DNA of 62,383 nt, the filler included. It is 3 parts of 3 records of this genome, joined end to end, with 100 filler letters (N's around TTAATTAATTAA, not from the genome) between each part and the next. Parts side by side here need not be neighbours in the genome. Positions count along the whole stretch, not along the records: positions 38,908 to 62,383 come from SRR31156797_16893; 2 more parts are not named here. One strand, written 5' to 3'. The translations under genes were made by a program, and so were the position numbers. Shown in pieces: positions 22,836 through 60,813 of this stretch. The notes beneath the pieces were generated by a model, which ran no database searches, had not been told where the DNA came from, and saw only the letters and a list, made by a program, of their open reading frames with translations. How positions within the stretch are numbered: the stretch's first letter is position 1; each line of letters opens with the position of its first letter.

Positions 22836-22923
22836 TAATCACGTTTTTTTGTTGTAATTTGTTGCAAATATCCTTTATAAGCAATGGATAACGTTTTGAT
22901 TTAATCAAAATGGAGGTTTAATT

Positions 22924-23679
22924 ATGAGACACAAATTAAATATACTGATAATAGATGATGATAGGGTCAGCCAAATATATTTGGGTGAACTTATTGATTT
23001 GATAATTGAAAATGTTCATGTTGTTAAAGCTGATGGGGGTGAGAAAGCAATAGAATTGCTCAAAAAGCAATCTTTTCATTTCATTTTCTCTGATATATTA
23101 ATGCCTGGTTTATCAGAAGAAAAGCTCTTTTGTGAATTAAAGGATGCTGTAAGACAAAGCCCCACAACAAAAATTATAGCTGTTTCCGGTATCGAAGATA
23201 TTGAAGAGATAAAAAAATTAGCACCAGGGGCTTCAATGGTACTTAAAAAACCAATTGATAGAGATGTGCTTAAAGAAATACTGCTTGAAGAAGGTGTAAA
23301 AGTCAAAGACGTTGATTCCGAAGACAGCGAAACCATTGTAATGGACCTTAATCTTCTTGTTAAATTGTATCAAAATAAACCGGATAAATTACTTAATCTT
23401 TTAAATCTTTACCGAAATACACTACCTAAACAATTTAATGCATTAAGAAATGCATATGACGAGGAGAATTCTGAGTTGGTAAAAACCAATGCACATTCCT
23501 TAAAAAATTCTTTTGCTTATCTGGGGGCTGCTTCACTAAGGGCCAAAGCATTATATATTGAAGAAAATGCCATAAATAAAAACAATCCGGATAGATTAAA
23601 AGTAAATGTAGATGATATACTCTCTTCAGAATCAATGGTAATAAATAAAATTGAAGAATTAATTCGCTCCTATGAATAA
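22924..23679 (+). CDS. Receiver-HPt fusion protein
   Basis: N-terminal receiver (ILIIDDD, FSDILMP, KKP) and C-terminal AHSLKNSFAYLGA HPt motif. Confidence 0.8.
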   Translation: MRHKLNILIIDDDRVSQIYLGELIDLIIENVHVVKADGGEKAIELLKKQSFHFIFSDILMPGLSEEKLFCELKDAVRQSPTTKIIAVSGIEDIEEIKKLAPGASMVLKKPIDRDVLKEILLEEGVKVKDVDSEDSETIVMDLNLLVKLYQNKPDKLLNLLNLYRNTLPKQFNALRNAYDEENSELVKTNAHSLKNSFAYLGAASLRAKALYIEENAINKNNPDRLKVNVDDILSSESMVINKIEELIRSYE

Positions 23680-26362: not shown

Positions 26363-26524
26363 GAATCAGGGTCTACTGTCATAATTTAACATTTCTACTC
26401 ATTCATATCTGAGAATTTTTTAGTAATTTTCACATGTTTATAGATGTTAAATATTCTGCAAGGGTTCTAATGCATTATATTTTAGAATACAATATGCATT
26501 TAGGCACCTAAAAAACGCATAGGG

Positions 26525-27724
26525 ATGAAAAAGATACTTTTAATCGTAATTTTTATTAATACAATTTTAAATTCATTTGCTTTTAATGTTGATATTTCTG
26601 CTGAGGAAAGGGTGGATAGTCTGCTGAGACAAGCACGTGAAATGATAGAGACCGATCCGGATAATGCATTGCTAATTCTGGACGAAGCTTTATCGTTAGC
26701 AGTGGATGGAGATTTCTTAAAGGCACAAGCCAATGCACTAAACTATAAAGGTTTGATTTTTTACGAGAAAAGAGATTTTCCTACTGCAATCAAACATTTT
26801 CAAGAAGCATTAAAAGTATTATTTAGGATTGGTGACAAAGAAAAAGTGGCCAATATGATGAAAAAGATAGGCTTAGCTTACCTTAATCAGCAAAAATATT
26901 CCAAAACAATTGAGTATTATAATTTCGCATTAAAGATTTTTGAACAGCTTGAACATGTTGGTCGAGAGGCATCTACACGTGTTGAAGTTGGCGTGATATA
27001 TCGTATTTCTGGCAGATATAATGACGCAGTTGAAGAATTTAATGCTGCAATCGAATTATTCAATAAACTTGATAATAAAGGTGGTCAGGCTGAGGCAATG
27101 CATCATTTGGCCAAAACATACCATGATATGGGCCATTTGAAACAAGCTGATAATTTGTTTCAAGAGACTTTAGATTTATACAATACTTATCTAGACTATA
27201 GTGGATTAAATACTGTCCTGAATAATTATGGTAGTTTGCTAATTGATTTGGAGAAATACCAAAAGGCTGAGGAAATATTAACTAAGGCTTTGGAGCGGTC
27301 AAATCAAGATAAGTCTATTATCTATGCTAAGGTGGCTGCTAATTATGGCACAGTCCAAGTATTTCTGGAAAAATATGAAGATGCTGAGAATTACTTAATG
27401 CAAGCTCTTGAAATAGCTCAAAAAGAAGAGGATACAGATTTAATGGCTCAGGTATATCGAATGCTTTATGAGTTAAACTTCAGAAATAACGATACCAAAA
27501 AAGCCTTGGTATTCTATCAAAAATATATTGCAGCTAAAGACACCACTGCAACATCCACATTATCAGAATTACAAGCCGGTGATTCCGGAGCCAATTTAAG
27601 TAATTTATTGATCTTCTTTACGGTGTTTGGAGCTATTGTAATTGTCGTTCTGGTTATATGGCTTTTGGCAGTTATTCGCCAGCGCGACAAAGCACTGGAA
27701 GAGCTTAAGAAGTTGAAAGAATAA
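26525..27724 (+). CDS. Membrane-anchored TPR protein with no cytoplasmic output domain
   Basis: Signal peptide, TPR array, C-terminal TM, about 15-aa charged tail. Confidence 0.85.
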   Translation: MKKILLIVIFINTILNSFAFNVDISAEERVDSLLRQAREMIETDPDNALLILDEALSLAVDGDFLKAQANALNYKGLIFYEKRDFPTAIKHFQEALKVLFRIGDKEKVANMMKKIGLAYLNQQKYSKTIEYYNFALKIFEQLEHVGREASTRVEVGVIYRISGRYNDAVEEFNAAIELFNKLDNKGGQAEAMHHLAKTYHDMGHLKQADNLFQETLDLYNTYLDYSGLNTVLNNYGSLLIDLEKYQKAEEILTKALERSNQDKSIIYAKVAANYGTVQVFLEKYEDAENYLMQALEIAQKEEDTDLMAQVYRMLYELNFRNNDTKKALVFYQKYIAAKDTTATSTLSELQAGDSGANLSNLLIFFTVFGAIVIVVLVIWLLAVIRQRDKALEELKKLKE

Positions 27725-27730
27725 TAAAAT

Positions 27731-28498
27731 TTACGGATACCAGTTATTTGATTCGTCAGTATATGTATTATATGCCGGGATTAACTCCTGTTTGAATTTA
27801 AAAAACAATTGTCCTGGTGCTGTATTTAAAATTATATTGAACAAGTTGAGCGTTTTATTTTTGGGAAAATATAGATATCCTCTTATGCTTTCTCCTTTGT
27901 ATAGTGTTGTTTTACGTAGTAATTCAGTGGCATAAAATGCCCGTTCTCTTTGTAATTGGTTACCTTCATGGTATCTTCTATCAATATTAGATTCAGTGGT
28001 TTGTCTTAAGTCTTCTCTGGTTTCTTTACGTGCAGCATTTTGTTCTGGTGTATCTTTTTTGGACATTGACATAGCTACATCTGCAGTGAGAGCTGTTGTG
28101 TTTACAATAAGACTGGTAAACTCCGCATTGGTTTGGGCTGCTTTATTTCTTGAAATCTTTTTATCAAGGCTTAGTAATAACGTTTCAGGATCAACTGCCC
28201 GTGTAGCATAATGATATAATCCACTATCAACTACAGGCTTAATGGAGAAATCGGTAGGAGAGATAGTGATTTTGGAATCGCTATTGTTAAGAATCTCTAC
28301 ATCAAAAACTAAATATCTTTTATCAGTTCTATCATATTTAATAGCGACTGTTAAACCCTTTAATTCTTTAGTTACAACCTGTTTACCCCATAACCAGTCA
28401 GTATTAGCTTCATGAGGAGTAATTTTTATAATATCCTGCGGAACAGCACAAGAAAAGAAAACAATAATTGATAAATAGGGTATTAATTTTTTAATCAT
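27731..28498 (-). CDS. Lipoprotein of unknown function
   Basis: Lipobox FFSC; 255-aa ORF convergent on the TPR gene. Confidence 0.75.
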   Translation of the reverse strand: MIKKLIPYLSIIVFFSCAVPQDIIKITPHEANTDWLWGKQVVTKELKGLTVAIKYDRTDKRYLVFDVEILNNSDSKITISPTDFSIKPVVDSGLYHYATRAVDPETLLLSLDKKISRNKAAQTNAEFTSLIVNTTALTADVAMSMSKKDTPEQNAARKETREDLRQTTESNIDRRYHEGNQLQRERAFYATELLRKTTLYKGESIRGYLYFPKNKTLNLFNIILNTAPGQLFFKFKQELIPAYNTYTDESNNWYP

Positions 28499-28572
28499 AG
28501 CTTATAATTATAAATTGCAGTATTAGGTTAACTTTTTTTTAAACGTCACAAACACGAATTAATTATTTTCAT

Positions 28573-29694
28573 ATGGATCTTGCAAACTTAAAAAATATTA
28601 GAGAATATCTACATAAGCACCCTGAATTGTCACATAATGAGGTTAAAACATCTAAATATCTACAGAAAAAAATTGAAGAAACACAACCTTTTTTTGTACG
28701 TAAGCAACTGAATGGATATGGCTTTTGGGCACGCTTAGGGAATGAAGGCAAAAGTATAGCTCTCCGAACCGATATAGATGCATTGCCTATTCAGGAGATT
28801 AATACATTTGATCATAAAAGCATATATGAGGGGGTGGCTCATAAATGCGGTCATGACGGTCATGCCACTTCAATGTTAGGTTTTGCTCATAGTATTTATA
28901 AAAATGTTGAGAATCCTATTGATTTGGTATTCCAGGCTGCCGAAGAAACCGGTAAAGGAGCTGAAGCATGGCTCAAGGATTCAGAAATGAAGGATTTTGC
29001 TCCTGAGAAAGTATTCGCCTATCATAATTTACCCGGGTTCCCATTGAATAGTATTATTGTTCGGAATGGTGTTTTTTCAGCTGCATCAGTGGGAATAATT
29101 ATAAAATTAAACGGTAAAACATCGCACGCTGGTCATCCTGAACGCGGAATTAGTCCTGCATTTGCACTAGCCGAAATAATAAAATATATTGAAGAACTGC
29201 CGCAAATTGAAAAATTTAAAGAATTTACATTAACTACTGTTATACATGCTTTACTTGGCGAAATAGCCTTTGGTACAGCTCCGGGTTATGCAGAGATCAG
29301 GGCAACATTGCGGTCATTTGATAATGATGATTTGAAAAGACTACAGAATCTGTGCGAAGAGTTTGCGAATAAAACCGCTCAAAAATATGGATTGAAGACG
29401 GAGATTACTTATACCGAATATTTTCCTGCCACAGAGAATAATTTTCAATGTGTTGATATAATAAGAAAGGCTGCGCAGAACCTTAATCTGCAAGTAATAG
29501 AAACTAATGAATCATTCCGTTGGTCCGAAGATTTTGCACATTTTACATTGAAATTTGAAGGTGCACTATTTGGCATTGGCGCTGGTGAGGATCATCCACA
29601 GTTACACAATCCGGATTATGATTTTCCTGACGAAATATTACCAACTGCAATCAATATGTTCACTGAAATATACAAAGTTTGCAATAATATGTAA
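28573..29694 (+). CDS. M20D family amidohydrolase
   Basis: HKHPELS, RTDIDALP, HKCGHDGH, QAAEE, SEDF, LHNPDYDF. Confidence 0.92.
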   Translation: MDLANLKNIREYLHKHPELSHNEVKTSKYLQKKIEETQPFFVRKQLNGYGFWARLGNEGKSIALRTDIDALPIQEINTFDHKSIYEGVAHKCGHDGHATSMLGFAHSIYKNVENPIDLVFQAAEETGKGAEAWLKDSEMKDFAPEKVFAYHNLPGFPLNSIIVRNGVFSAASVGIIIKLNGKTSHAGHPERGISPAFALAEIIKYIEELPQIEKFKEFTLTTVIHALLGEIAFGTAPGYAEIRATLRSFDNDDLKRLQNLCEEFANKTAQKYGLKTEITYTEYFPATENNFQCVDIIRKAAQNLNLQVIETNESFRWSEDFAHFTLKFEGALFGIGAGEDHPQLHNPDYDFPDEILPTAINMFTEIYKVCNNM

Positions 29695-29701
29695 TCTGCA
29701 A

Positions 29702-30109
29702 TTATTTGTATGCGCTTAAGTTGAAGTAATTCAAGTATTTACTGGTGCTTCTGCCGTATACTTCTACGCTCTTACCTTCCAATTTGTAGGTTGCTTCTTC
29801 GCCTTTGATTCTGGAAAAATGAATCTCGAAAGGAGCACCATCTTTGTCTTCCATAATGATATGTGCTAGCTCCTCCGATTTGTTAGAATTAAGGTTTTTG
29901 TGACAAGCTGGACAGAAAAACTTGAGTTTTTCTCCATGTGCAACATCAAAATTTTCATGGGAATCAACAGCATAGTTGCCTAACTCAGGATGCAGGAGGA
30001 TTAATCCATAATCCCCTTTTTCATTTTCTGCAGCTAATACTATTTGTTTACAAACATTCAAATAAGCATTGCATTTGGGACATCTGAAATTATTCATAAT
30101 AACCTCCAA
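29702..30109 (-). CDS. Small protein with two CxxC motifs (putative double zinc ribbon)
   Basis: FRCPKC and FFCPAC motifs. Confidence 0.7.
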   Translation of the reverse strand: MEVIMNNFRCPKCNAYLNVCKQIVLAAENEKGDYGLILLHPELGNYAVDSHENFDVAHGEKLKFFCPACHKNLNSNKSEELAHIIMEDKDGAPFEIHFSRIKGEEATYKLEGKSVEVYGRSTSKYLNYFNLSAYK

Positions 30110-30235
30110 TTTTTAATTAGACTTTATTCTTTTATACGTAAAATGACCAGAAAAGGTAGGCTTTTAAATGTTTTTTTGAGCAGTGGTGGACTATTTGTAC
30201 TGAAAAATAGAATATGAAATTAAACGAAACCTTCT

Positions 30236-30243
30236 TACCTTTG
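30236..30243 (+). promoter_or_regulatory. Bacteroidota -7 element for tilS
   Basis: TACCTTTG 50 nt upstream of the ATG. Confidence 0.6.
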
Positions 30244-30292
30244 AATCATACAAGGCTTTGGCCTCTGGAAAGCTGGTTAATAATTTTTATTT

Positions 30293-31633
30293 ATGGGATT
30301 AACTGTTAATGTTCAGGGATTTATAAATAAACATCAACTATTTGATGAAAGTAACCATATTATTCTTGGACTCAGTGGTGGAGCTGATAGCATGGCGCTT
30401 GCGCATTTTTTATTAATAAACGGGTACCAATTTACTGCTGCACATTGCAATTTTCATTTAAGAGGACAAGATTCTGATCTGGATCAACAACTTGTGCAGA
30501 AATGGTGTAACGATAATCAGGTTAAATTGAAAATAAAAGATTTCAATACACTTGAATACGCACATCATAATAAAGTTTCAATTGAGATGGCTGCTCGTGA
30601 TTTGAGATATAGTTGGTTTGAAAAGCTAACAAAAGAATTAAATGCTCAAGTAATTGCAGTTGCACATCATGTAAATGATCAAATTGAAACCTTTTTCCTA
30701 AATATGCTCAGAGGTTCTGGCATCCGAGGTTACAAAGGGATGCTTCCAGCTTTTGAAAAGATTGTTCGACCCTTTCTAAATACTCCAAGAGCTGAAATAG
30801 AAGATTATATCAATAAGTACCAAATTCCATATAGAGATGATCATTCGAATAAGGATACAACCATATTGAGGAATGCAATTCGGCATAAAGTTATTCCAGA
30901 GCTTGAGCAAATTAATCAGTCATTCGTTGATACCATGAGTAAAAATATGCAACGTTTGATTGGTGTTTGGTCTTTCCTGAAATTGCATTTTAATGAGATG
31001 GAAGAGAGAATGATTGAGCAGAGCCGAGAAATAACAAAAATTAAATTACCCGATGAGAAACAAAGTCATATCTATCTCGATTTTTTAAATTATTACTTTA
31101 CTCAGCATAACTATTCATTTCCAATGACAGAGGTTGAAGATATTATTGAGGGGCAGGTTGGAAAGTTATTAGCCCATAATGGCTTTGTTTTGACTAAAGA
31201 GCGCGGCTTTCTTTCTATATCAAAATTAGTAGATGCTACGAAGTTTAATTCGAATGTTGACAAAATTCCTTGTAGTATAAAATGGGGTAGATATGAGTTT
31301 TATTTTAAATATGTAAAACCTCAGGGTAAAAACTCTATACCAATTATCCCGGATAAAGTCTGGCTGAAAATTGGAGACAAGGATCTACCTCTCAAACTTC
31401 GAGTATGGGAACCGGGCGATGCAATGAATCCATTTGGTATGACAGGCACAAAAAAAATTAAAAATATGCTTACTGATGCTCAAGTGCCAAGTATACAAAG
31501 AAAGAATTATCCTGTGCTGGCTGTAAAAAATGATATTGCATGGTTACCCGGCATCAGGCCAAGTAGAAAATACATTGTTTCGGGAAATGAAGAACAAGTA
31601 TTGGAAATTAGGGTTTTATATAAGGAAAATTAG
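30293..31633 (+). CDS. tilS: tRNA(Ile)-lysidine synthetase
   Basis: SGGADSMAL PP-loop, HCNFHLRG, EMAARDLRY, AHHVNDQIET, RNAIRH. Confidence 0.96.
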   Translation: MGLTVNVQGFINKHQLFDESNHIILGLSGGADSMALAHFLLINGYQFTAAHCNFHLRGQDSDLDQQLVQKWCNDNQVKLKIKDFNTLEYAHHNKVSIEMAARDLRYSWFEKLTKELNAQVIAVAHHVNDQIETFFLNMLRGSGIRGYKGMLPAFEKIVRPFLNTPRAEIEDYINKYQIPYRDDHSNKDTTILRNAIRHKVIPELEQINQSFVDTMSKNMQRLIGVWSFLKLHFNEMEERMIEQSREITKIKLPDEKQSHIYLDFLNYYFTQHNYSFPMTEVEDIIEGQVGKLLAHNGFVLTKERGFLSISKLVDATKFNSNVDKIPCSIKWGRYEFYFKYVKPQGKNSIPIIPDKVWLKIGDKDLPLKLRVWEPGDAMNPFGMTGTKKIKNMLTDAQVPSIQRKNYPVLAVKNDIAWLPGIRPSRKYIVSGNEEQVLEIRVLYKEN

Positions 31634-31656
31634 AACTAATTAAAAAAAATAAGATT

Positions 31657-32556
31657 ATGAAAAATACTTTGATTGTATCAACAATGCTTTTTGCTTTTTT
31701 GATAATGCTTGCTTCATGTAATCAACCTTCTAAAGAAAATGCTGATGGTAAGGCTAAAGAGCCTGCAAAGGAAATGACAGAATACAAAGCAGAAAAAGTT
31801 TGGTCAACAGAACAGGTTTTTGATGTGCCTGAGTCTGTTTGTTACGATGCAGAAAGAGATATCCTTTATGTGGCAAATATTTCGGGAAAACCATCAGAAA
31901 AAGATGGAAAAGGATTTATTAGTCAAATGAAAACCAATGGAGAGATAGTTGATGTTGAGTGGGTTACAGGTCTTGATGCACCGAAAGGTATGGGTGTATT
32001 AGGCGACAAACTATACGTTACTAATATAGATGAATTAGTAGAAATCAGTATTACTGAAGGTAAAGAAATCGCTCGATACGCATGTGAAGGAGCTACATTT
32101 GCTAATGATATTGCCATTGATAAGTCAGGTGTAGTTTATATAACCGACATGCAAGGCGGAGGTATTTATAAGTTTGATGGTGAGAAGGTATCAATGTTCA
32201 AAGATCAGGGAACTTTCAATAGCCCAAATGGATTGTTTGCTTGCAAAGATTATTTGTACCTTGGTGTTGCTGATCGCGTTTTTAAGATTGATTATGAAAC
32301 TGCTGATACAGCAACTTACATTAAGGGAACTGAATCTGTTGATGGTTTAGAAAAAATATCAGCTACTGCTTTTCTTAAGAGTGATTGGCAGGGGAGAGTT
32401 CATCTAGTGGAACCTGGAAAAGAAAAGATTGAATTGACTAACACTATTGAGCAAAAAGTGAATGCTGCTGATATAGAGTACATTCCTGCTCAGAAACTAA
32501 TGCTAATTCCTACATTTTTCGATAATAGGGTAGTAGCATATAAAATATCACAATAA
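31657..32556 (+). CDS. SMP-30/gluconolactonase-like beta-propeller lipoprotein
   Basis: Lipobox LASC; PES, APKGM, ANDI, PNGL and DGL blade motifs. Confidence 0.8.
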   Translation: MKNTLIVSTMLFAFLIMLASCNQPSKENADGKAKEPAKEMTEYKAEKVWSTEQVFDVPESVCYDAERDILYVANISGKPSEKDGKGFISQMKTNGEIVDVEWVTGLDAPKGMGVLGDKLYVTNIDELVEISITEGKEIARYACEGATFANDIAIDKSGVVYITDMQGGGIYKFDGEKVSMFKDQGTFNSPNGLFACKDYLYLGVADRVFKIDYETADTATYIKGTESVDGLEKISATAFLKSDWQGRVHLVEPGKEKIELTNTIEQKVNAADIEYIPAQKLMLIPTFFDNRVVAYKISQ

Positions 32557-32568
32557 TATTTTTAGTTG

Positions 32569-32602
32569 TAACTACCTGGTATTAAGCAGGTAGTTATTTT
32601 TT
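32569..32602 (+). terminator. Intrinsic terminator
   Basis: TAACTACCTG-8 nt-CAGGTAGTTA then a T-run. Confidence 0.8.
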
Positions 32603-32611
32603 AATTGTTAT

Positions 32612-32657
32612 CAACTAAAGATTTAGTTGTAAAACTAAAATATTAGTTTTATGTTTG
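32612..32657 (+). promoter_or_regulatory. Two palindromic operators (AACTAA-N4-TTAGTT) abutting a -7 element upstream of blaI
   Basis: CAACTAAAGATTTAGTTG (32612-32629), AAAACTAAAATATTAGTTTT (32631-32650), TATGTTTG (32650-32657). Confidence 0.75.
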
Positions 32658-32719
32658 CGTTAGTAAAATATGATGAATGCACGCACGATTTTTGTTGCGA
32701 AATTAATTAAACAATAAAA

Positions 32720-33112
32720 ATGAATGAGTTAACCAAAGCAGAAGAACAGGTAATGCAGGAATTATGGAAGTTGGAGAAAGCTTTCGTAAAAGAGATAATT
32801 GCTGAATTACCAGAACCCAAGCCTGCCTATAATACAATAAGCACTATTGTGCGGATTCTGGAAAGAAAGGGTTTTGTTGCTCATGAAGCTTTTGGAAAAA
32901 CGCACCGTTATTATCCGCTGATTACGAAAAAGACCTATACAAAAGGATTTATGAAAGGTTTTTTGAATAATTATTTCAGTAGTTCAATGAAGAACCTTGT
33001 TTCGTTTTTTGCAAAAGATAAATCGCTCTCACTTTCAGAGATGGAAGAGCTTAAAAGTATGCTAGAAGACGAAATTGCCCTTCAAAAGGCCAATGAAAAA
33101 GATTCAAAATAA
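32720..33112 (+). CDS. BlaI/MecI/CopY family repressor
   Basis: LTKAEEQVMQ.LW, PAYNTISTIVRILERKG, YF..S..NLVSFF. Confidence 0.93.
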   Translation: MNELTKAEEQVMQELWKLEKAFVKEIIAELPEPKPAYNTISTIVRILERKGFVAHEAFGKTHRYYPLITKKTYTKGFMKGFLNNYFSSSMKNLVSFFAKDKSLSLSEMEELKSMLEDEIALQKANEKDSK

Positions 33113-33117
33113 AAGCT

Positions 33118-34455
33118 ATGACAGAAAACTGGATCATTTATTTATTAGAATCAGCCGTAATTCTGATGTTCTTTTGGACAGTTTATTGGCTGTTTCTCAG
33201 GTCTGAGACTTTTTTCAGACTAAATCGGATTTACCTACAATCAACATTAATTCTAGGTTTATTAATTCCCATGTTTGACTGGGTTATTGATATGAAAACG
33301 GCAGATGTGGTGAATGTCTATATTTTAGATACAATTGTTGTATCTGCGCAAGAGGTAGAAATAGGTACAATTGAAATGATTAATAAGTTTCAATGGATAC
33401 CGCTAATTTTGATGGCCGGGACAATTATTGCATTATTGCTCTTTGCTGTAGGGGTTTATAAAATCATTTTGCTTGTTAAACATAGCAAGACAATAAAAGA
33501 GGGAAAATATATATTTGTGTTGAATGATAAATTTACCCGACCATTTTCTTTTCTAAGTTTTATTTTTATTACTCCAGATGTATATAGTAATCAGGAAAAT
33601 ATACATATTATAAATCATGAAAAGGTTCATGTAAAGCAAAGACACTCTCTGGATTTAATATTTTCAGGTTTGGTTGGCGCTTTTCAATGGTTTAACCCTT
33701 TTGCATGGTTGTATAGAGAAGCATTTCGCGAAATTCATGAATATTTGGCTGATGAAGCGGTTTTGCATCAAGGTGAGGATCCAATCTTGTATAAAAAGTC
33801 GCTTATAAATGAGGCCGCCGGTTTTACACCGGGAATTATTAGTTTTTTTAATGTATCATTTACAAAAAGGAGGTTTAAAATGATGTCACGTATCAAATCA
33901 CCGCGTTCAAACGCATTCAAAGTACTGGTTATATTGCCGGTAGCTGCATTAATGGTTGTTGTATTTGCTTGCAGTCCAGATCAGGATGTTGAAAATGAAG
34001 TAACACTAAATCAACCAACATCGCAAACTGAAAATAATACAGTTGTCAATGATGTTGAACAGGAATCTGAAGAAAATATTACAAAGCAATCTGGTGATGA
34101 TCCTGTATTTAGCGTTGTGGAGCAAATGCCTGAATACGAAGGGGGAAGAGATGCTTTAATAGCTGATCTTGTGAAAGGAATTGTTTATCCTGAATCTGCG
34201 AAACAAGCCGGAGTTCAGGCAAAAGTTTTTATTGGATTTGTAATCGATAAAGAGGGTAATATTCAATCACCTGAAATTATTAAAATTGTTTCCGTTAATG
34301 GAGGCGAAATTTCTTTGGACGAATCCATTGAGGAAGATTTTACCAGCGCCGCTATAGAAGCTATTTCAGGACTTAAAAAATGGAAGCCTGGTATGCAGGA
34401 AGGAAAACCTGTAAAAGTTAAATATGCATTACCAATTGCATTCAAACTAAATTAA
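33118..34455 (+). CDS. BlaR1-like M56 metallopeptidase fused to a TonB C-terminal domain
   Basis: TM helices, HEKVH zincin motif, WFNPFAW, HEYLAD; C-terminal VEQMPEY.GG...YP..A...V...FVID..G...WKPG.Q.GKPV.V.Y.LPI.F. Confidence 0.92.
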   Translation: MTENWIIYLLESAVILMFFWTVYWLFLRSETFFRLNRIYLQSTLILGLLIPMFDWVIDMKTADVVNVYILDTIVVSAQEVEIGTIEMINKFQWIPLILMAGTIIALLLFAVGVYKIILLVKHSKTIKEGKYIFVLNDKFTRPFSFLSFIFITPDVYSNQENIHIINHEKVHVKQRHSLDLIFSGLVGAFQWFNPFAWLYREAFREIHEYLADEAVLHQGEDPILYKKSLINEAAGFTPGIISFFNVSFTKRRFKMMSRIKSPRSNAFKVLVILPVAALMVVVFACSPDQDVENEVTLNQPTSQTENNTVVNDVEQESEENITKQSGDDPVFSVVEQMPEYEGGRDALIADLVKGIVYPESAKQAGVQAKVFIGFVIDKEGNIQSPEIIKIVSVNGGEISLDESIEEDFTSAAIEAISGLKKWKPGMQEGKPVKVKYALPIAFKLN

Positions 34456-34462
34456 ATTTCTA

Positions 34463-35752
34463 ATGCGTGCATTCATCATCATTTTACTATTTTTCACGTA
34501 TTCATCATTTTCGCAAAATGTAAAACTTTACGATAGTCTTTTATCAAATTACAAATATTCAGAACTGTTTGAGAAAGCATTTGAAAAGGTTAGCATAGAT
34601 TCTTCGGATATTCTTTCATTAACATATTTAGCGCGGGCGGCTGAAAAGCAATATCTTGAAAATATTGCATTGGAAACCTGGCAAGCGGTTGTGGCTTTAG
34701 AACCTGATCATTATGAAGGATTGGCCGGTTGTAAGCGCATTTTAGTTAAGAAAGATCAATTTGAAACAGCATTACCATTTCTTCATAAGATGAACCGATT
34801 GAATCCTCGACAATTAAGAAATTATTGGGATTTAGCCTGGTGTAATTATAAGTTGGAAAAATATGAAGAAGCCATAAATTGGTGTGACACTTCTTTAGCC
34901 ACATACCATCCCAATGCCATGGTTTCAGACTTAAAGGCTCATAGTTATATTGGGTTAAAAGATACAGCATCAGCACTAGCCATTTGGTACGATTTAACTA
35001 AAAACTATTATGCCGATCAATATGCAAGGCAATTGGTTTTTAATGCTGCTGAAACAGAATGGACAGATACTGTGCTTAATTTGCTTTCCCAAATGCAAGA
35101 ATATGATACGTTAAATGCTTATTTGCCTAAAATGCATGGTTACTTGTTGTTTCGAAATAAAGATTATGCCGATGCAACCATTGCATTTCGCAAATCAATG
35201 GAATTAGGTGATTCAACTGAGTTCACACGTCGCTTCTGGGGCATGTCTGCCTTTAATTTTGAAGATTATTCGTCTGCATTTCACTTACTTAACTCACTAA
35301 AGGATATTAATGAGAATAACTCACTATTTTACATGATGAGTATTGCTCATGCCCGAGTTTACGCTGATACAACTTCTTATAGTCTGCTTCAGGATACATA
35401 TGATAAATTTTTTGATCCACCTTTTGTGGCTGGTATTTTAGATGAAATAAGTGAAACAACTAAATTAATTGCAGATAAATACGATCGCCGGGGTAAAGAT
35501 GAAATAGCTCGAGACTATTACCAAATGTCTGAAAGCTCTTTGTTTATGGCCAGAAAAATTCATTATAAAAATTCCAATAATCTAAGGCTGGCAATGCTCT
35601 ATGATATTTATAAAAAAGACTTGCATAAAGCATTAAAGTACTACAAGCAATATGTCGAGAATCATGTGGATACATCAAATCGAAATTTTAAATTCTCTAA
35701 AATGAGAGTGAAATTGATAAAAGAAGAACTTCATTTTAATGATGATTTGTAG
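34463..35752 (+). CDS. Secreted TPR-repeat protein
   Basis: Signal peptide ending SFSQ; degenerate TPR helices; 7 nt after the M56-TonB gene. Confidence 0.75.
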   Translation: MRAFIIILLFFTYSSFSQNVKLYDSLLSNYKYSELFEKAFEKVSIDSSDILSLTYLARAAEKQYLENIALETWQAVVALEPDHYEGLAGCKRILVKKDQFETALPFLHKMNRLNPRQLRNYWDLAWCNYKLEKYEEAINWCDTSLATYHPNAMVSDLKAHSYIGLKDTASALAIWYDLTKNYYADQYARQLVFNAAETEWTDTVLNLLSQMQEYDTLNAYLPKMHGYLLFRNKDYADATIAFRKSMELGDSTEFTRRFWGMSAFNFEDYSSAFHLLNSLKDINENNSLFYMMSIAHARVYADTTSYSLLQDTYDKFFDPPFVAGILDEISETTKLIADKYDRRGKDEIARDYYQMSESSLFMARKIHYKNSNNLRLAMLYDIYKKDLHKALKYYKQYVENHVDTSNRNFKFSKMRVKLIKEELHFNDDL

Positions 35753-35856
35753 GTAAAATTACCCTTTCTTTTTCTTAACAATTGGGGGGGTCAAATTCTG
35801 AGTAACATATCCTGCATAATTTTCGTATATTGCAATCTACCTATACAACTAGCCTG

Positions 35857-38364
35857 ATGTTAAAATTTATATGTGTTATAATGTTTGCTATAATCATACT
35901 GAATGGTTATGGTCAGGAATCAAGGAAAGATAGTATCGTAAATGCACTAGAAAATTATACAGAAAGAGATACAAATCGTGTAACTCTTCTTAGAGATTAT
36001 TCAATTGAATTAATTCAGGATACGATTCCAGAGCAATTATTGACAGTGGCAAATGAGGTATTATCAATTTCTAAAGAGCTAAAATATCCCGAAGGAATTG
36101 TATATGGAAATTTAATTCTCGCGAGGTATTACGAAAAAATAGGTAATCACAAAAAAACAAAAGATCAATATTTTTATACAATTAATAATTCTAAAGCATA
36201 TAGAAGTAGCTTAAGATATCCAATTTATCAAAATTTTGGACATTATTTTTATCGCTATAATCAATACGATAGTTCATTTTTTTATTATACAAAAGCATTT
36301 GAAATAATACCAACACATTTGGTTGATGAGACATTTCAATTGTTGTCAAATATTACAATATCTTCTTTCTATTCTTCTCAATTTGATACTACTATTTATT
36401 ATTCAAGAATTGCTCTGGATCATATTAAGAAAAATGAAATAAAAAATGGGGCAAGAGCTGCAGCTAATATTATTGCTTCAGCTTTCAAACGTAAAGGAGA
36501 TATTGATTCCGCGTTACATTATTTTAATATGGTTGTCGGATTTGCAGAAGAGGAAGAAGATAAATTTGCAGAAATGCAGGTTTATAATAATATGGCCAAT
36601 ATCTATGGCGATCAAGGAGACTATCCAAAAGCACTTGATTATTATTTACTGACCTTAAAGACCGCAGAAGATATTGATTCTGAGCTAGGTATGTTGGTTA
36701 CTTATAATAATATTGCAATTGTCTATTATACACTAAAAGAATACAAAGAGGCCTTAAACTATTTGCATAAAAGTTTTGAGCTAAGCAAAGACAATGAGAA
36801 TGTTGAGAATATGGTAAATACCATGAATAATATTGGAGAATTGTATTTTAATATTGATAGTATTGATAAATCATACTTTTATTATAAAGAAGCGGGGACA
36901 TTGTTAGAGGAAGCTGGTGAAAAGACATACTATATCTACAATTACAAAGGTAAAGGATTGATATTTGACCGAAAAGGAATGCACGATAGTGCAATTTTAT
37001 ATCTTAATAATGCGCTAAAAATAGCAAGGGAAATTGATTCTAAATTGGATATGGCCACAACAAATGTTGCCATAGCGCAGCATTATCTTCTAACAAATAA
37101 TTTACAAAAGTCACTTTATCATGCTAATCAGGGATTGAATTATGCCCAAGAGATTGGTTTAGTTGAAACAATAAGGGATGCTGCTGATGTTTTACACCAG
37201 GCCAATGCCAAATTGGTAAGACATAGAGATGCTTACAAATATCTCAAGGTTTATACTGAAATGAATGATAGTTTGTTAAACCAGGACAATACCAGAGAGG
37301 TTACACAGCTTGAGATGCAGTATAAGCATGATAAAGAATTGCATGAACGCGAAGCGCAGGAGACTATGCGGGAATTGGAACGTCAAAAAGAAATTACAAA
37401 GCAGAAAGGATTGCGAAATGCTTTTATCGTTGCTTTTATTTTGGTATTGTTGATTATTGTAATTGTAGTCAGAAGTATTAGACAGAAACAAAAAGCTAAT
37501 CAGCTATTAGCTTATCAAAAAGCAGAGATTGAAGAGAAAAATGAAGAGCTACAGCAACTAATGAGCGAAATATCAAGACAAAAAGATGAAATTGAAAGTA
37601 GCCACAACCTGATTAAAGGCAGTATTCGATATGCGGAGCGAATTCAAAATGCACTTTTACCTACTGAAGAAAACCTTTCTGAACTGTTTGTTGATCATTT
37701 CGTTTTTTACAAACCATTAGAAATTGTTAGTGGTGATTTTTATTGGGTTGAAAAAGTGCATGGAAATATTTTGATCGCAGCTGCAGATTGCACTGGGCAT
37801 GGGGTTCCCGGAGCAATGTTGAGTATGTTGGGTATCTCGTATTTAAATGATATTGCCAGACAACCTAATATTGTAGTAGCGAGCCAGGTACTGGAGTTGA
37901 TGCGTAAGCGAATAAAACGATCGTTGCATCAAACCGGTGATGTGCGCGAAGCTCGTGATGGAATGGATTTAGCATTTGCGGCAATTAATATTGAAGAACA
38001 AACACTAGACTATGCTGGAGCCAATAACCCAATTCTTATTTTCCGAAATGGTGAAATGATTGAATTAGAGCCGGATAAACAACCAATTGGAGTGTTTCAA
38101 AAAGAAGAGCCTTTTAAAAACCAGCTAATCAAACTTGAGAAAGATGATGTAATTTATCTCTTTACTGATGGATTTCTAGATCAGTTCAATGGGACTACTA
38201 ATAAAAAATACGGCAGTAAAAAATTCAAAGAATTACTAGGTAAAATTCACAGTCAACCAATGTTAAATCAGAAAAATATTTTGAGACAGGAACTGGATGA
38301 ATGGATGAATGGAACAACTACACAAATCGATGATATATTAGTTGCAGGATTTAGGTGGAAATAA
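35857..38364 (+). CDS. Periplasmic TPR sensor with SpoIIE/PP2C phosphatase (second paralogue)
   Basis: Same architecture as 20247-22835; VSGDFYW, ADCTGHGVPGA, FTDG, DDIL; ATG at 35857 preferred because TATATTG overlaps the TTG start. Confidence 0.92.
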   Translation: MLKFICVIMFAIIILNGYGQESRKDSIVNALENYTERDTNRVTLLRDYSIELIQDTIPEQLLTVANEVLSISKELKYPEGIVYGNLILARYYEKIGNHKKTKDQYFYTINNSKAYRSSLRYPIYQNFGHYFYRYNQYDSSFFYYTKAFEIIPTHLVDETFQLLSNITISSFYSSQFDTTIYYSRIALDHIKKNEIKNGARAAANIIASAFKRKGDIDSALHYFNMVVGFAEEEEDKFAEMQVYNNMANIYGDQGDYPKALDYYLLTLKTAEDIDSELGMLVTYNNIAIVYYTLKEYKEALNYLHKSFELSKDNENVENMVNTMNNIGELYFNIDSIDKSYFYYKEAGTLLEEAGEKTYYIYNYKGKGLIFDRKGMHDSAILYLNNALKIAREIDSKLDMATTNVAIAQHYLLTNNLQKSLYHANQGLNYAQEIGLVETIRDAADVLHQANAKLVRHRDAYKYLKVYTEMNDSLLNQDNTREVTQLEMQYKHDKELHEREAQETMRELERQKEITKQKGLRNAFIVAFILVLLIIVIVVRSIRQKQKANQLLAYQKAEIEEKNEELQQLMSEISRQKDEIESSHNLIKGSIRYAERIQNALLPTEENLSELFVDHFVFYKPLEIVSGDFYWVEKVHGNILIAAADCTGHGVPGAMLSMLGISYLNDIARQPNIVVASQVLELMRKRIKRSLHQTGDVREARDGMDLAFAAINIEEQTLDYAGANNPILIFRNGEMIELEPDKQPIGVFQKEEPFKNQLIKLEKDDVIYLFTDGFLDQFNGTTNKKYGSKKFKELLGKIHSQPMLNQKNILRQELDEWMNGTTTQIDDILVAGFRWK

Positions 38365-38807: not shown

Positions 38808-38907
38808 NNNNNNNNNNNNNNNNNNNNNNNNNNNNNNNNNNNNNNNNNNNNTTAATTAATTAANNNNNNNNNNNNNNNNNNNNNNNNNNNNNNNNNNNNN
38901 NNNNNNN
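38808..38907. other. Artificial contig spacer and organism boundary
   Basis: 100-nt N block with TTAATTAATTAA at 38852-38863; composition and gene families change after it. Confidence 0.98.
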
Positions 38908-54600: not shown

Positions 54601-55327
54601 ATGAATTTACACAAATCAGCACAATTTAGTTTCTTTCAGAGTAATGATCCGGAATGTGTTCCGACACTACTGCCCTACCTAAAAATGTACGGCAACAGAT
54701 GCATGTCCTATTCGACAACACAACCGGGGTTGAGTCATGCCCTGCTGAAATCCAGCGGTTATATTTCATGGTTGGAAGTCAAAACACTCATGCATGGGAA
54801 AAACGCGGTACTTCTGTCCGAACCGGTCGCCGCCCCAGCCCAAAAGTTATTTCTTATAAAAAACTTGAACAACATTTAGGCCAAATAACTCTCATCCAGA
54901 TTGGGGAAAATTTGGCTGAAACACTTTTTAATGAAGGATACAACATTTATCAGATCGGGGTGGAAACCGAACTGGACATCCAAACATATTCCCTGAACGG
55001 AAAGCACAAAAGCTCACTTCGCCGATGGAACAACAAAGGACGGAAATCCGGACTTATCGTAGAAGAAAAGAAATTTTCAGAAATGGATCAACAGGAAATC
55101 AATAAACTCTGTCAGGATTGGAACAGGGCTACAATCTTTCCAGACCGTTGCAAAAACTTGCTCAACTCTTCTATGATGTTGGAGAAAAAGTATATCCGTT
55201 CAAGGGAAACGCCAGACATAAGTCTAAATTCTGCGGCAAAAGGAAAAAAGTATATGTAGCGAGCAATGCAGGCTGGTTCAGGACGATGATAGCGGCAGCT
55301 ACTGCGTGCGGACTGGAGTTATCATAA
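54601..55327 (+). pseudogene. Broken DUF2156 (lysyl-PG synthase C-terminal-like) gene
   Basis: Family-like sequence split over three frames: VLLSEPVAAP; YQIGVETELDIQTYSLNGK...SLRRW.NK; YPFKGNARHKSKF. Confidence 0.7.
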
Positions 55328-58060: not shown

Positions 58061-59083
58061 TTACTCAGCTGAAGGTTCCAGCTTGATTTTCCCCGAAATC
58101 AGATCGTTCCTCAAATTTTCGAGCAGACCAAGAACATCAGGAGTAATCAAATGTTTACTGTATTTCATTTCAGTTAACCCGACACCGCCATCCGCGAGGC
58201 CATATGCCTTACGCCCCGGCACAAAGGTCCCATTCAAAACAGCAAGGCATTCTTTGTATACGGCCACATCAAGCCTTTTCATCATGCTGGTCAAGACCGT
58301 TCCCTTAGCCATGTGATCCTGATTAGAATCAACACCGACAACCAGATTACCTGTATCTCGTGCAGCCTGGATTATACCGTTACCGGAAAGACCGGCAACA
58401 GCATAAATGATGTCCGTACCGGAACTGAACATATTCAGAGCCAGAGCATTAGCCTGTTGCGGATCTTCAAACCCTTTCTCGGAATTTCCCCTGCGCACGA
58501 ACTTAACATCAACTTCAACATCTCTGCCGGTAAACTCCACTCCCCGACGAAATCCGTTTAAAAATTCCTTGATTACGGGCAGCTCATTTGCACCGATAAA
58601 ACCGATTTTGCCAGTTTTTGTCTGCCATGCGCATAATGCCCCGACCAGACACGACCCCGGACCATGTCCATAATCAATTGAAATAATATTCGAATATCCT
58701 TCAAGCGCAGAATCATTAAAAATGAAAACGACATCAGGATGATCAAGAGCCATTTCGCCAAAACGGTTTCCTGACGGCATACTGTTGACCACAACAATTT
58801 CGGCACCTTCGCCAATTGAGGATTCAACAGCATCAGTAACGGTCTCTAGAGTAAACCCTCCCCTGCGGACCACCACCTCTATTTGACGCTCCTTTTGCAA
58901 ACGGCGCAATCCGGCAGCAACCATTTCATTGAAGGAATTATCATTAATAGTATCACCGGAAGCGACAAATCCGATTTTCACAACTGCAGCACGGCAAATA
59001 GACTTATTTCCAAAAATGAAAATAAAGATAAACAGGAATATCATCATTCCAACATATGCTTTTGCCCTGATCATGAAATTCAC
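58061..59083 (-). CDS. BMP/PnrA family periplasmic solute-binding protein
   Basis: Signal peptide; DNSFNE, TKTGKIGFIG, DIIYAVAG.SG.G, VGVDSNQ, TSMMKRLD. Confidence 0.9.
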   Translation of the reverse strand: MNFMIRAKAYVGMMIFLFIFIFIFGNKSICRAAVVKIGFVASGDTINDNSFNEMVAAGLRRLQKERQIEVVVRRGGFTLETVTDAVESSIGEGAEIVVVNSMPSGNRFGEMALDHPDVVFIFNDSALEGYSNIISIDYGHGPGSCLVGALCAWQTKTGKIGFIGANELPVIKEFLNGFRRGVEFTGRDVEVDVKFVRRGNSEKGFEDPQQANALALNMFSSGTDIIYAVAGLSGNGIIQAARDTGNLVVGVDSNQDHMAKGTVLTSMMKRLDVAVYKECLAVLNGTFVPGRKAYGLADGGVGLTEMKYSKHLITPDVLGLLENLRNDLISGKIKLEPSAE

Positions 59084-59092
59084 CTAAAAAAG

Positions 59093-60601
59093 TCAAGCTT
59101 CATCTGTGCTATCTGGATCAAGCAAACCGCCGAGATCGGCTCCAAGAACCCGCCCGGGCCATTTGTAAAAACAATATCCATGTTCCTCGACAAACTTCCT
59201 GATCTTCTGCTGCCCCCCACGGGCAAAGGGCAATGAAGCAAAGCCGATGTGCTCCTTAGTCACCTCAATATCCCCAAACAGATACATCAGGTTGAACGGG
59301 ACAGCTTTTTCAGGATGTATCTCGGCAGGAACAACCAGATGCATAGCCTGCGAGTTACTTCCCCTGAAAACATTAATCTTCCCGGTCAGCTCCTTGCGCT
59401 CTTCAACCTCATCCTTGAAAAAAGGTTCAATCAAACGTTTTAAAGTTCCATCAACCTTAGCAACGGCAAGCCCATAGTTAGTGATGGGAACATGCTGGCG
59501 GTCACAATCCCTGATCCGTCTAAGCATATCAGCCCGTTCAGCCATGCAGGCACCGCAATGGACCACCAGCTTATATTCGGAAAGATCAATAGGCAAACCG
59601 CATCCAGTTTTAGATTCAAAAATAATATTGCGTTTTGTATATCCGGCAATCCTTGCTGGAATCATCTCCTTACCAAGGTCCTCAGCCTTGGGGTGGTGAG
59701 GACAAGCCTCGACAATAAGCACCTTGTCCCCGTCCTGAAGATTCTCAATAGCATTGGCCCCCTGGACAAGTTGTTCCAGATTACCCTTATGGCGGGCAAA
59801 AAGGATAGGAAAGGTAGTAAGGGAAACATCACGCGGAATGAGGTCCATAACTTTCTTAATAGGCTCGGAGTCTGCAATCACAAGTGCCGGACGCCGCTTA
59901 TGCCCGGAAATGGTCTGGTAAAGCTCTCCTTCCTTAACGATAACCGCAATCCCCCCGGCATCAAGGATTTCACGCAGCACCTGTGACTTAGGAAGTCCCA
60001 ACCTACCTTTGGGGGAAACCGGATCTTCAGAAACAACACAGACCACAAAATCCCCCCTGCCCATAAGGTCACGGGCCAGCACGGGATCAAGCATATTTTC
60101 TTCCGGCGCAAGAGCCATGATGGACTTCTTGAGCCGCTCAATACCCCGGCCGTCAACAGTAGAAGTAGCCACAAAACGGACTCCGCGTGAACCGCAGAAT
60201 TCCATATCAGCAAGACTGGGCCGCCTAATATCCGCCTTGTTGAAAACCATCACGCAGGGGATGCCACGATCCCGTAACAGGTTGGTTAGTTCCCGTTCTT
60301 CATCGAGAATGCCGGAATCATCGGTAACAATGACCGCCACATCCACACTGTATAAGGCATCTTTAATGACCCGTGCCCGATCATCACCGGGAACATGGGC
60401 ATCAGTATCATAAATGGTAACAGGCCCCAACGGATGGATCTCCGCCCTTGTCAGGGGATACATTTCATCTTCACTGGCCACAGGGCTGACTTCGCCGCTT
60501 TCAACCCCTGAAAGGGCACGTATTATTGAAGACTTACCAACATTACTTCTTCCGGCAATGGCTATAGCAAGCTTGGAACCGCTTTCAATTTCAGCAGTCA
60601 T
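59093..60601 (-). CDS. hydF: HydF-like Fe-S/GTPase protein with degenerate switch motifs and a C-terminal extension
   Basis: GRSNVGKSS, HPLGPVT, NKAD, PKGRL.LP, EACPHH...VHCGAC, PITNYG; about 100 extra C-terminal residues. Confidence 0.8.
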   Translation of the reverse strand: MTAEIESGSKLAIAIAGRSNVGKSSIIRALSGVESGEVSPVASEDEMYPLTRAEIHPLGPVTIYDTDAHVPGDDRARVIKDALYSVDVAVIVTDDSGILDEERELTNLLRDRGIPCVMVFNKADIRRPSLADMEFCGSRGVRFVATSTVDGRGIERLKKSIMALAPEENMLDPVLARDLMGRGDFVVCVVSEDPVSPKGRLGLPKSQVLREILDAGGIAVIVKEGELYQTISGHKRRPALVIADSEPIKKVMDLIPRDVSLTTFPILFARHKGNLEQLVQGANAIENLQDGDKVLIVEACPHHPKAEDLGKEMIPARIAGYTKRNIIFESKTGCGLPIDLSEYKLVVHCGACMAERADMLRRIRDCDRQHVPITNYGLAVAKVDGTLKRLIEPFFKDEVEERKELTGKINVFRGSNSQAMHLVVPAEIHPEKAVPFNLMYLFGDIEVTKEHIGFASLPFARGGQQKIRKFVEEHGYCFYKWPGRVLGADLGGLLDPDSTDEA

Positions 60602-60748
60602 TCTTCAACCTCCGGTTCATATCTCAATCAATCAAAACAACAGTTCGAAATTCAGTATTATTAATTACTCAAGAAATAGCACTTTATACAAAACATTTCA
60701 TCCCAATTATCCCGAACCAATTTATAGCCGGAAAACGCACGCGGAGGC

Positions 60749-60780
60749 AAAAAAAATGCGGGACCCTTTAAGGACCCCGC
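60749..60780 (-). terminator. Terminator after glnS
   Basis: Minus-strand GCGGGGTCC-TTAAA-GGGTCCCGC then A and T8. Confidence 0.75.
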
Positions 60781-60813
60781 AAAATTCTACCCAACACCCG
60801 CAAGGGTACGGTA

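Follow-up and report, generated by a model that had tools for sequence, protein, structure and literature searches.

HydF is treated as a single-function marker of [FeFe]-hydrogenase maturation, and its cluster is reportedly essential for that process, to go by the title of a 2025 paper (PMC12752695). In this GTPase, the threonine of switch I and the D-x2-G motif make the contacts to the γ-phosphate and to Mg2+. Two kinds of kinase system also serve as points of reference here: HoxBC, an H2-sensing regulatory hydrogenase that is paired with the kinase HoxJ, and the LuxP-LuxQ-LuxU and TorT-TorS relays. The excerpts of PMC9431212 at hand describe the P-loop, DxxG and NKxD motifs of HydF as binding GTP and Mg2+, and a C-x-H-x(46-53)-C-x(2)-C motif as binding the [4Fe-4S] cluster. 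In the available portion of PMC6212873, a conformational switch of HydF is triggered by GTP binding, not hydrolysis, and operates through switch 1 (residues 31-46) and switch 2 (residues 68-86); GTP also alters the electron paramagnetic resonance signal of the cluster. Here we describe a HydF-like gene at 59093..60601 of a 62,383-nucleotide stretch of DNA (the window). This HydF paralogue is peculiar to the genus Maridesulfovibrio, where it has a constrained form of its own. It is an undescribed variant of the known HydF family, confined to one genus: among the full-text literature matches listed, none was found to describe such a HydF paralogue or a link between HydF and a kinase.

By domain architecture and family score, the protein, which we call the variant, belongs to the HydF family. 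Its frame starts with the ATG at 60601 and runs without a stop for 502 residues. Pfam places a 50S-ribosome-binding-type GTPase domain (MMR_HSR1, PF01926) at residues 13-122, followed by HydF_dimer and HydF_tetramer, and residues 8-395 of this three-domain body align to 5kh0. The nearest solved structures are the HydF entries 5kh0, 5lad and 3qq5 (E 5e-71 to 2e-69 over residues 7-399), database relatives (M. zosterae, M. ferrireducens and M. bastinii are among the species named) carry the name HydF, and the NCBIfam equivalog model for HydF, TIGR03918, scores the variant at 361.3 bits, above its cut-off of 325.55. Canonical HydF has the same three-domain body, a P-loop with asparagine, NKxD, the C-x-H-x46-C-x2-C ligands with their HH pair and the ED residues, and is 40-48% identical to the variant over residues 8-395. 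In contrast to canonical HydF, the variant lacks GTTTD and DxxG, carries an added YcgL-like domain, has no hyd neighbours and sits on a long branch.

The motifs were read from pairwise alignments to 5kh0 and 5lad and from an alignment of 18 sequences. Both nucleotide-binding patterns of HydF, G-x4-G-K-[ST] and [NT]-K-x-D, are present as GRSNVGKS and NKAD, and the 46 residues between H302 and C349 give the spacing of C-x-H-x(46-53)-C-x(2)-C. Columns C300, H302, H303, D308, H348, C349 and C352 are invariant in the 18-sequence alignment. The switch I threonine of GTTTD and the D-x2-G motif are both absent. An earlier note on this DNA, made from the letters alone, had reported that G1, G4 and the cluster ligands (CPH...HCGAC) are kept, that GTTTD has become SEDEM and that DTPG/DTAG has become DTDA. 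The alignments with canonical HydFs agree on each of these points and add a deletion at G3: canonical DTAG(L/V)DD lies opposite DT----DAH, with the DxxG glycine gone and four residues missing. The sequences that replace the switches are themselves conserved in the clade, for example as (E/D)D(E/D)MYPLT(R/K) and YDTDAH. Among the 120 best database matches, counted by regular expression, the G2 motif occurs in 108/109 and DTxG in 109/109 canonical proteins of about 400 residues (P0012-P0120), and each occurs in 0/11 members of the clade, which are about 500 residues long (P0001-P0011). A predicted model of the full-length protein has low confidence at residues 42-47.

At the level of sequence, the variant is a pseudo-GTPase, in which the G-domain fold and the binding motifs are retained and the switch and catalytic motifs are lost. 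We infer that binding of a [4Fe-4S] cluster and of a guanine nucleotide is probably retained, and that the protein would have neither the canonical GTP-driven switch nor the hydrolysis cycle. For the mechanism of HydF, the variant may thus represent a natural separation of cluster binding from the GTP switch. Because two catalytic motifs and the association with hyd genes are missing, the variant should not be annotated as a maturation GTPase, and TIGR03918 over-calls its clade by about 35 bits.

Paralogy was examined in relatives whose proteins are 81-98% identical, which a scan of species-representative genomes found at 10 Maridesulfovibrio or 'Desulfovibrio sp.' loci. Five of the genomes, those behind L001, L002, L004, L007 and L008, were examined for hyd genes. 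All five encode both proteins: canonical HydF scores 555-559 bits in open frames of 401-419 residues, with two copies in one genome, and the variant 348-367 bits in open frames of 503-508 residues. HydG and HydE score above their cut-offs in each of the five. A hydA-hydG-hydE-hydF row is found in 5/5, away from the variant. For example, in genome G001 hydA, hydG, hydE and hydF start at 471509, 473330, 476813 and 477774, and the variant lies at 2340145, about 1.9 Mb off. The earlier note had allowed that this might be the only hydF; in the relatives it is not, canonical hydEFG being present elsewhere in 5/5. Two of these genomes hold further hyd genes. G002 has a second, complete cluster at 203356-211223, with hydA, hydG, hydE and a second canonical hydF. 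G001 has a near-identical hydA-hydG-hydE stretch both on its chromosome (from 3730183) and on contig C3 (14499-21216); the chromosomal hydE copy of this second stretch is a short fragment, and a second hydF was not detected in this genome.

In the genus to which G001 belongs, 26/26 genomes carry the variant and 25/26 carry canonical HydF, with two canonical copies in 3/26. The variant frame is intact in all 26 (499-514 residues, no internal stop), and its family-model scores of 346-367 bits lie about 200 bits below the 490-559 bits of the canonical copies. The sole genome with no canonical match, G347, is a many-contig assembly in which the variant is on contig C78, and the missing canonical copy is therefore not established there. 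HydF, otherwise taken to mark a single function, accordingly occurs in Maridesulfovibrio with a constrained second copy.

The divergence of the variant was placed in a maximum-likelihood tree of 76 rows, built by a quick method with a midpoint root from every second canonical match and leaving out P0121, a more degenerate relative described below. The stem shared by the 15 variant rows is 1.61 changes per column long and has a support of 100 in the Shimodaira-Hasegawa-like approximate likelihood-ratio test, and branches inside the clade are at most 0.16. This is the separate clade with conserved degenerate motifs that the earlier note had suggested looking for, and its alternative, that the substitutions and the synteny are peculiar to one strain, does not hold, since they extend across the genus (26/26 for the variant, 23/23 for the kinase discussed below). 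Canonical Maridesulfovibrio copies group with Solidesulfovibrio HydF, and the best canonical matches of the variant are Desulfovibrionaceae proteins at 44-48% identity. The sequence data would be consistent with an origin inside Desulfovibrionaceae HydF. The point at which the long stem attaches is not to be trusted, because the root is a midpoint root, the method was quick and no approximately unbiased test was run.

Within the clade, the variant changes slowly. Summed by hand, the branches between G001 and G005 amount to about 0.29 for the variant vs about 0.52 for canonical HydF, and the variant is therefore the slower of the two. Against the L004 copy, all four domains, the GTPase domain (~0.04) among them, have a ratio of nonsynonymous to synonymous substitution rates (dN/dS, Nei-Gojobori) of 0.017-0.039, with dS at 1.4-2.0, near saturation, and saturated in deeper comparisons. 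Purifying selection on the variant is strong.

Of what the clade has gained, the YcgL-like domain at the C terminus, absent from the earlier note, is the most distinctive. An extension of about 105 residues follows the HydF body in all clade members. Its signature, VPFN ... GYCFYKWPG, shows no variation, whether the domain is fused or stands alone. Pfam gives no match to the domain of the variant in the window up to E 10. A HMMER search with the extension finds six clusters (at 50% identity) among 1.84 billion cluster representatives, namely the clade itself, the 483-residue fused protein P0121 and four stand-alone proteins of 104-157 residues. Two stand-alone relatives match Pfam YcgL weakly (E 0.09 and 0.21; 13.5 and 12.4 bits, below the cut-off of 25), and the variant domain itself falls short of the gathering score of PF05166 (YcgL/DUF709). 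An AlphaFold2 model of the domain, from a 10-row alignment, has a predicted local distance difference test score of 83. Foldseek against PDB ranks E. coli YcgL, 2h7a, first (probability 0.94, template-modelling (TM) score 0.52), with all other rows at TM 0.26 or less. VIA-align against all representatives superimposes residues 403-482 on 2h7a with Z 8.1, a root-mean-square deviation of 2.7 over 73 residues and 23% identity; the next chain has Z 4.4.

The domain is, by its predicted fold, YcgL-like, with the α/β sandwich of YcgL. We use this name by fold because 2h7a tops two structure searches; by sequence, PF05166 is not reached. E. coli YcgL (DUF709, PF05166; nuclear magnetic resonance structure 2H7A) has the fold predicted here for the variant domain, whereas the latter has its own VPFN and GYCFYKWPG signature, is fused to a HydF body and belongs to a very small family. 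Other searches with the domain were uninformative: its profile finds noise in PDB sequences (Pizza repeat proteins, E ≥0.055), the ESM Atlas returns only 'hypothetical protein' clusters with scores of at most 0.90 and low recognition, and a literature search for YcgL gave nothing relevant among the matches listed. For domain biology, the fusion is a testable lead on what the YcgL fold does, and on how Fe-S or hydrogen status could couple to a phosphorelay in a sulfate reducer.

In a 401-genome sample of the order, the C-terminal domain occurs in 33 genomes, as 23 fused frames of about 500 residues, all in genomes on the genus list, and as 10 short stand-alone frames. Five of the 10 stand-alone contexts are of an AddB/xerC/dprA type, two follow a DJ-1/PfpI gene, one is a signalling context and two are unassigned. 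A metagenome scan with the domain alignment adds four loci; three fall in the variant clade, and the fourth, at the end of a contig, resembles the stand-alone form. The AddB-type contexts, seen in five Desulfovibrionales genomes (L070-L074, each at about 5.9-6.4 kb), place the stand-alone gene between an AddB-type PD-(D/E)XK nuclease gene and an xerC-like integrase gene with dprA; a PCC-domain or GNAT acetyltransferase gene sometimes intervenes beside the AddB-type gene, and this is a conserved housekeeping context. In the signalling context (L013 7947-9524, = L066), the stand-alone gene has two single-domain receiver genes after it, and a sensor-PAS-GGDEF gene lies opposite.

P0121, a single 483-residue sequence from one source and one cluster, is collinear with the variant over residues 70-495 at 31% identity. 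Its body matches canonical HydFs over residues ~70-375 (E 1e-10 to 1e-19), and it has no P-loop, NKxD or cysteine ligands; its YcgL-like domain is kept at 62% identity. The metagenome scan found no context for P0121, and its genome is not among the 401 family genomes searched, where nothing comes closer to it than the Maridesulfovibrio variant (34-37% identity).

Downstream of the variant gene, on the same strand, lies the gene for a membrane histidine kinase. In the window, the row is variant, bmp, kinase and hpt, with 9 nucleotides between the variant and the GTG of bmp at 59083 (or 18 to the ATG at 59074), 8 between bmp and the kinase gene and 3 between the kinase gene and hpt. No hairpin with a T-run was found at the gene junctions of the row. 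The kinase has a HAMP domain but no PAS or GAF domain in Pfam, and it falls far short of the cut-offs of its closest NCBIfam models, TorS, BarA and LuxQ. Among the open reading frames scanned with Pfam in 38908-62383, there is no hydE, hydG or hydrogenase domain, as the earlier note had stated for the adjacent genes; it was also right about a terminator between glnS and the variant, where we find a hairpin followed by T8. Likewise, none of hydE, hydG and hydA is beside the variant in the 10 loci with their 8-kb flanks. The hyd-gene neighbourhood, a proxy for acting with HydE and HydG on HydA, is therefore lacking.

All 10 of these loci have the order glnS, variant, (bmp), kinase, hpt, with bmp absent from L010 and a remnant in L003. 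A same-strand kinase gene follows in 23/23 genus loci, after bmp in 19, directly in three and after a bmp remnant in one. The bmp gene is lost in L010, L040, L047 and L059 and truncated in L003 and L057, and the adjacency of variant and kinase is retained. In the deepest lineage (L076, = L059; protein identical to P0011, M. bastinii), the gene directly after the variant encodes a 508-residue kinase with HisKA and HATPase_c only, then comes an SBF transporter gene, and the locus has no bmp, receiver domain or hpt. Since bmp, the receiver domains and hpt vary, the constant pair is the variant and the kinase core. The bmp-kinase-hpt row of the earlier note thus stands for the window in its close spacing of 9-18 nucleotides; as a constant unit it does not, bmp being missing or truncated in 4/23 loci and hpt absent from L076. 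An apparent internal stop in the L010 kinase was rejected; the tblastn range runs on past the natural stop codon, and the gene is unbroken.

Gene order points to a stable co-location and probable co-transcription of the variant with the kinase. From gene order only, we tentatively favour a reading, to which we would give somewhat less than an even chance, in which the variant is a cytoplasmic, cofactor-bearing accessory input to the adjacent membrane kinase. The variant would be co-transcribed with the histidine kinase 3' of it and would report Fe-S, redox or hydrogen-metabolism status to that kinase. The kinase itself has, HAMP apart, no cytoplasmic sensor domain; the variant could supply the cytoplasmic input, and the Bmp protein would provide the periplasmic input where there is one. 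The YcgL-like domain and the remodelled switch surfaces would then serve a new partner. The LuxP-LuxQ-LuxU and TorT-TorS relays resemble this row in combining a binding protein (here Bmp), a hybrid kinase and a separate Hpt. They differ in that no equivalog cut-off is reached here, that bmp, the receiver domains and hpt are inconstant, and that no response regulator is adjacent.

Several observations weigh against a role as kinase input. The Pfam scan finds no response regulator gene in the row. The adjacency is inherited, and is not independent functional evidence, because it comes from a single genus whose members also keep the flanking glnS and SBF genes. We considered the stand-alone YcgL-like genes as an independent tie to signalling and rejected them, as 1/10 contexts (L013) is of that kind. 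Finally, P0121 hints, as a single sequence, that a HydF-shaped body with a YcgL-like domain can persist without cofactors; because the cofactor is dispensable for the architecture there, P0121 weighs somewhat against a purely cofactor-based reading. A complex prediction for the variant (502 residues) with kinase residues 170-520 scored 0.00, was made without alignments or controls, and carries no weight either way.

A more specific form of the kinase-input reading is that the HydF scaffold was recruited as a sensor. A [4Fe-4S] cluster that has an exchangeable ligand, and perhaps also a 2Fe precursor from canonical HydE/HydG, would be held in a scaffold that is locked by nucleotide binding without hydrolysis, and the YcgL-like domain would signal H2, CO, redox state or H-cluster precursor supply to the kinase. 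We consider this specific form quite unlikely, a long shot. If true, it would be an [FeFe]-side counterpart of HoxBC-HoxJ and the first function for the YcgL fold. The likeness to HoxBC-HoxJ would be one of proposed principle only, in which a soluble metallocofactor protein from hydrogen metabolism signals to an adjacent kinase, and involves no homology.

One alternative keeps the variant in hydrogenase biogenesis, as a holder, store or regulator of H-cluster precursor or maturase, for example in mixed oligomers with canonical HydF or in the service of one of two HydAs, with the kinase incidental. Each of the five genomes has two HydA large-subunit genes, yet 4/5 have a single canonical hydF. 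The variant co-occurs with canonical HydF in 25/26 genomes, and what the two share is best conserved in the cluster-binding, dimer and tetramer domains. However, the variant is ~1.9 Mb from the hyd cluster in G001 and apart from hydE, hydG and hydA in the 10 loci and in the right part of the window. The regions that, in the available portion of PMC6212873, are thought to govern the GTP-dependent switch are replaced, and the HydF family is otherwise defined, in the part of PMC3226654 at hand, by co-occurrence with HydE and HydG. We regard a role in biogenesis as unlikely, though a serious contender.

A second alternative is that the role is set by the YcgL-like module together with the HydF-derived oligomeric body, is shared with the stand-alone proteins and is independent of both kinase and hydrogenases. 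This would fit the invariance of VPFN and GYCFYKWPG in fused and stand-alone forms, the housekeeping contexts of stand-alone YcgL-like genes, and P0121, which keeps the body and the domain without the cofactor motifs. It sits less well with the clade itself, where the P-loop, NKxD and cluster ligands are invariant and the gene is under purifying selection, and P0121 is one sequence from one source. Because the cofactor motifs are invariant under purifying selection, cofactor binding matters in the Maridesulfovibrio clade. A role set by the YcgL-like module is doubtful in our view, if still one to be reckoned with.

That the variant is an ordinary, redundant HydF, which hydrolyses GTP in a non-canonical way and matures HydA, is very improbable. 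The score above the NCBIfam cut-off, the HydF names of its relatives and the one genome with the variant copy only (G347) would speak for it, but the variant scores ~200 bits below canonical HydF, is without G2 and G3 and has an extra domain, and G347 is a many-contig assembly. We give next to no credence to a decaying, functionless copy, which could explain the loss of motifs essential in the parent family, because the replaced switch regions are conserved and dN/dS is low (~0.03), with the frame intact in 26/26 genomes.

Table 1. Features of the HydF-like gene, its row and the left part of the window, in window coordinates
Feature	Coordinates	Strand	Remark
HydF-like paralogue, 502 aa	59093..60601	-	coordinates include stop codon; open frame
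Shine-Dalgarno-like GGAGG	60609..60613	-	7 nt before ATG at 60601
GTPase-like domain, aa 1-172	60086..60601	-	Pfam, alignments with canonical HydFs
G1 GRSNVGKS, aa 17-24	60530-60553	-	kept
Switch I remnant SEDEM, aa 43-47	60461-60475	-	opposite canonical GTTTD
G3 remnant DTDA, aa 65-68	60398-60409	-	opposite canonical DTAG/DTPG
G4 NKAD, aa 121-124	60230-60241	-	kept
HydF dimerisation domain, aa 175-273	59783..60079	-	PF18128, E 1.1e-37
HydF tetramerisation / [4Fe-4S] domain, aa 277-393	59423..59773	-	PF18133, E 1.6e-43
Cluster ligand motif CPHH, aa 300-303	59693-59704	-	kept
Cluster ligand motif HCGAC, aa 348-352	59546-59560	-	kept
C-terminal extension, YcgL-like α/β domain (predicted), aa 395-502	59096..59419	-	folded core ~aa 408-490
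Intrinsic-terminator-like hairpin after glnS	60757..60781	-	11 pairs, 7 GC, then T8
Bmp/PnrA-family substrate-binding protein, hydrophobic N-terminus	58061..59083	-	PF02608, E 1.2e-49; variable row member
Membrane hybrid histidine kinase, 795 aa	55665..58052	-	two hydrophobic segments, HAMP, HisKA, HATPase_c, two receiver domains
Stand-alone Hpt phosphotransfer protein, 105 aa	55344..55661	-	PF01627, E 1.8e-11
TPR-SpoIIE phosphatases, two	20247-22832, 35830-38361
REC-Hpt protein	22924-23676
TPR histidine kinase	23672-26359
TPR protein	26525-27721

The window itself is composite. A spacer at 38808-38907, with N runs around TTAATTAATTAA, joins left and right parts that come from different organisms and are not one replicon; the DNA stems from a mixed bin or was concatenated. 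The right part (23.5 kb, GC ~47%) is Maridesulfovibrio and wholly contains the HydF-like gene and its row. Next to this row, on the plus strand between hpt and the SBF transporter gene, a 201-residue open reading frame (54654-55259) matches no more than positions 68-159 of the 298-position profile of the lysyl-phosphatidylglycerol synthase C-terminal domain; the matches in relatives are partial too, and the frame may be what is left of a gene. In the left part (1-38807, GC ~33%) the housekeeping genes are of Bacteroidota type, among them those for DUF4835, CoaBC, BamD, a TonB-dependent receptor with CarboxypepD_reg, MnmA, XseA and TilS, and the ffh gene is cut at the spacer. The left part also holds a TPR-rich signalling cluster at 20247-38361, whose members are listed in Table 1.

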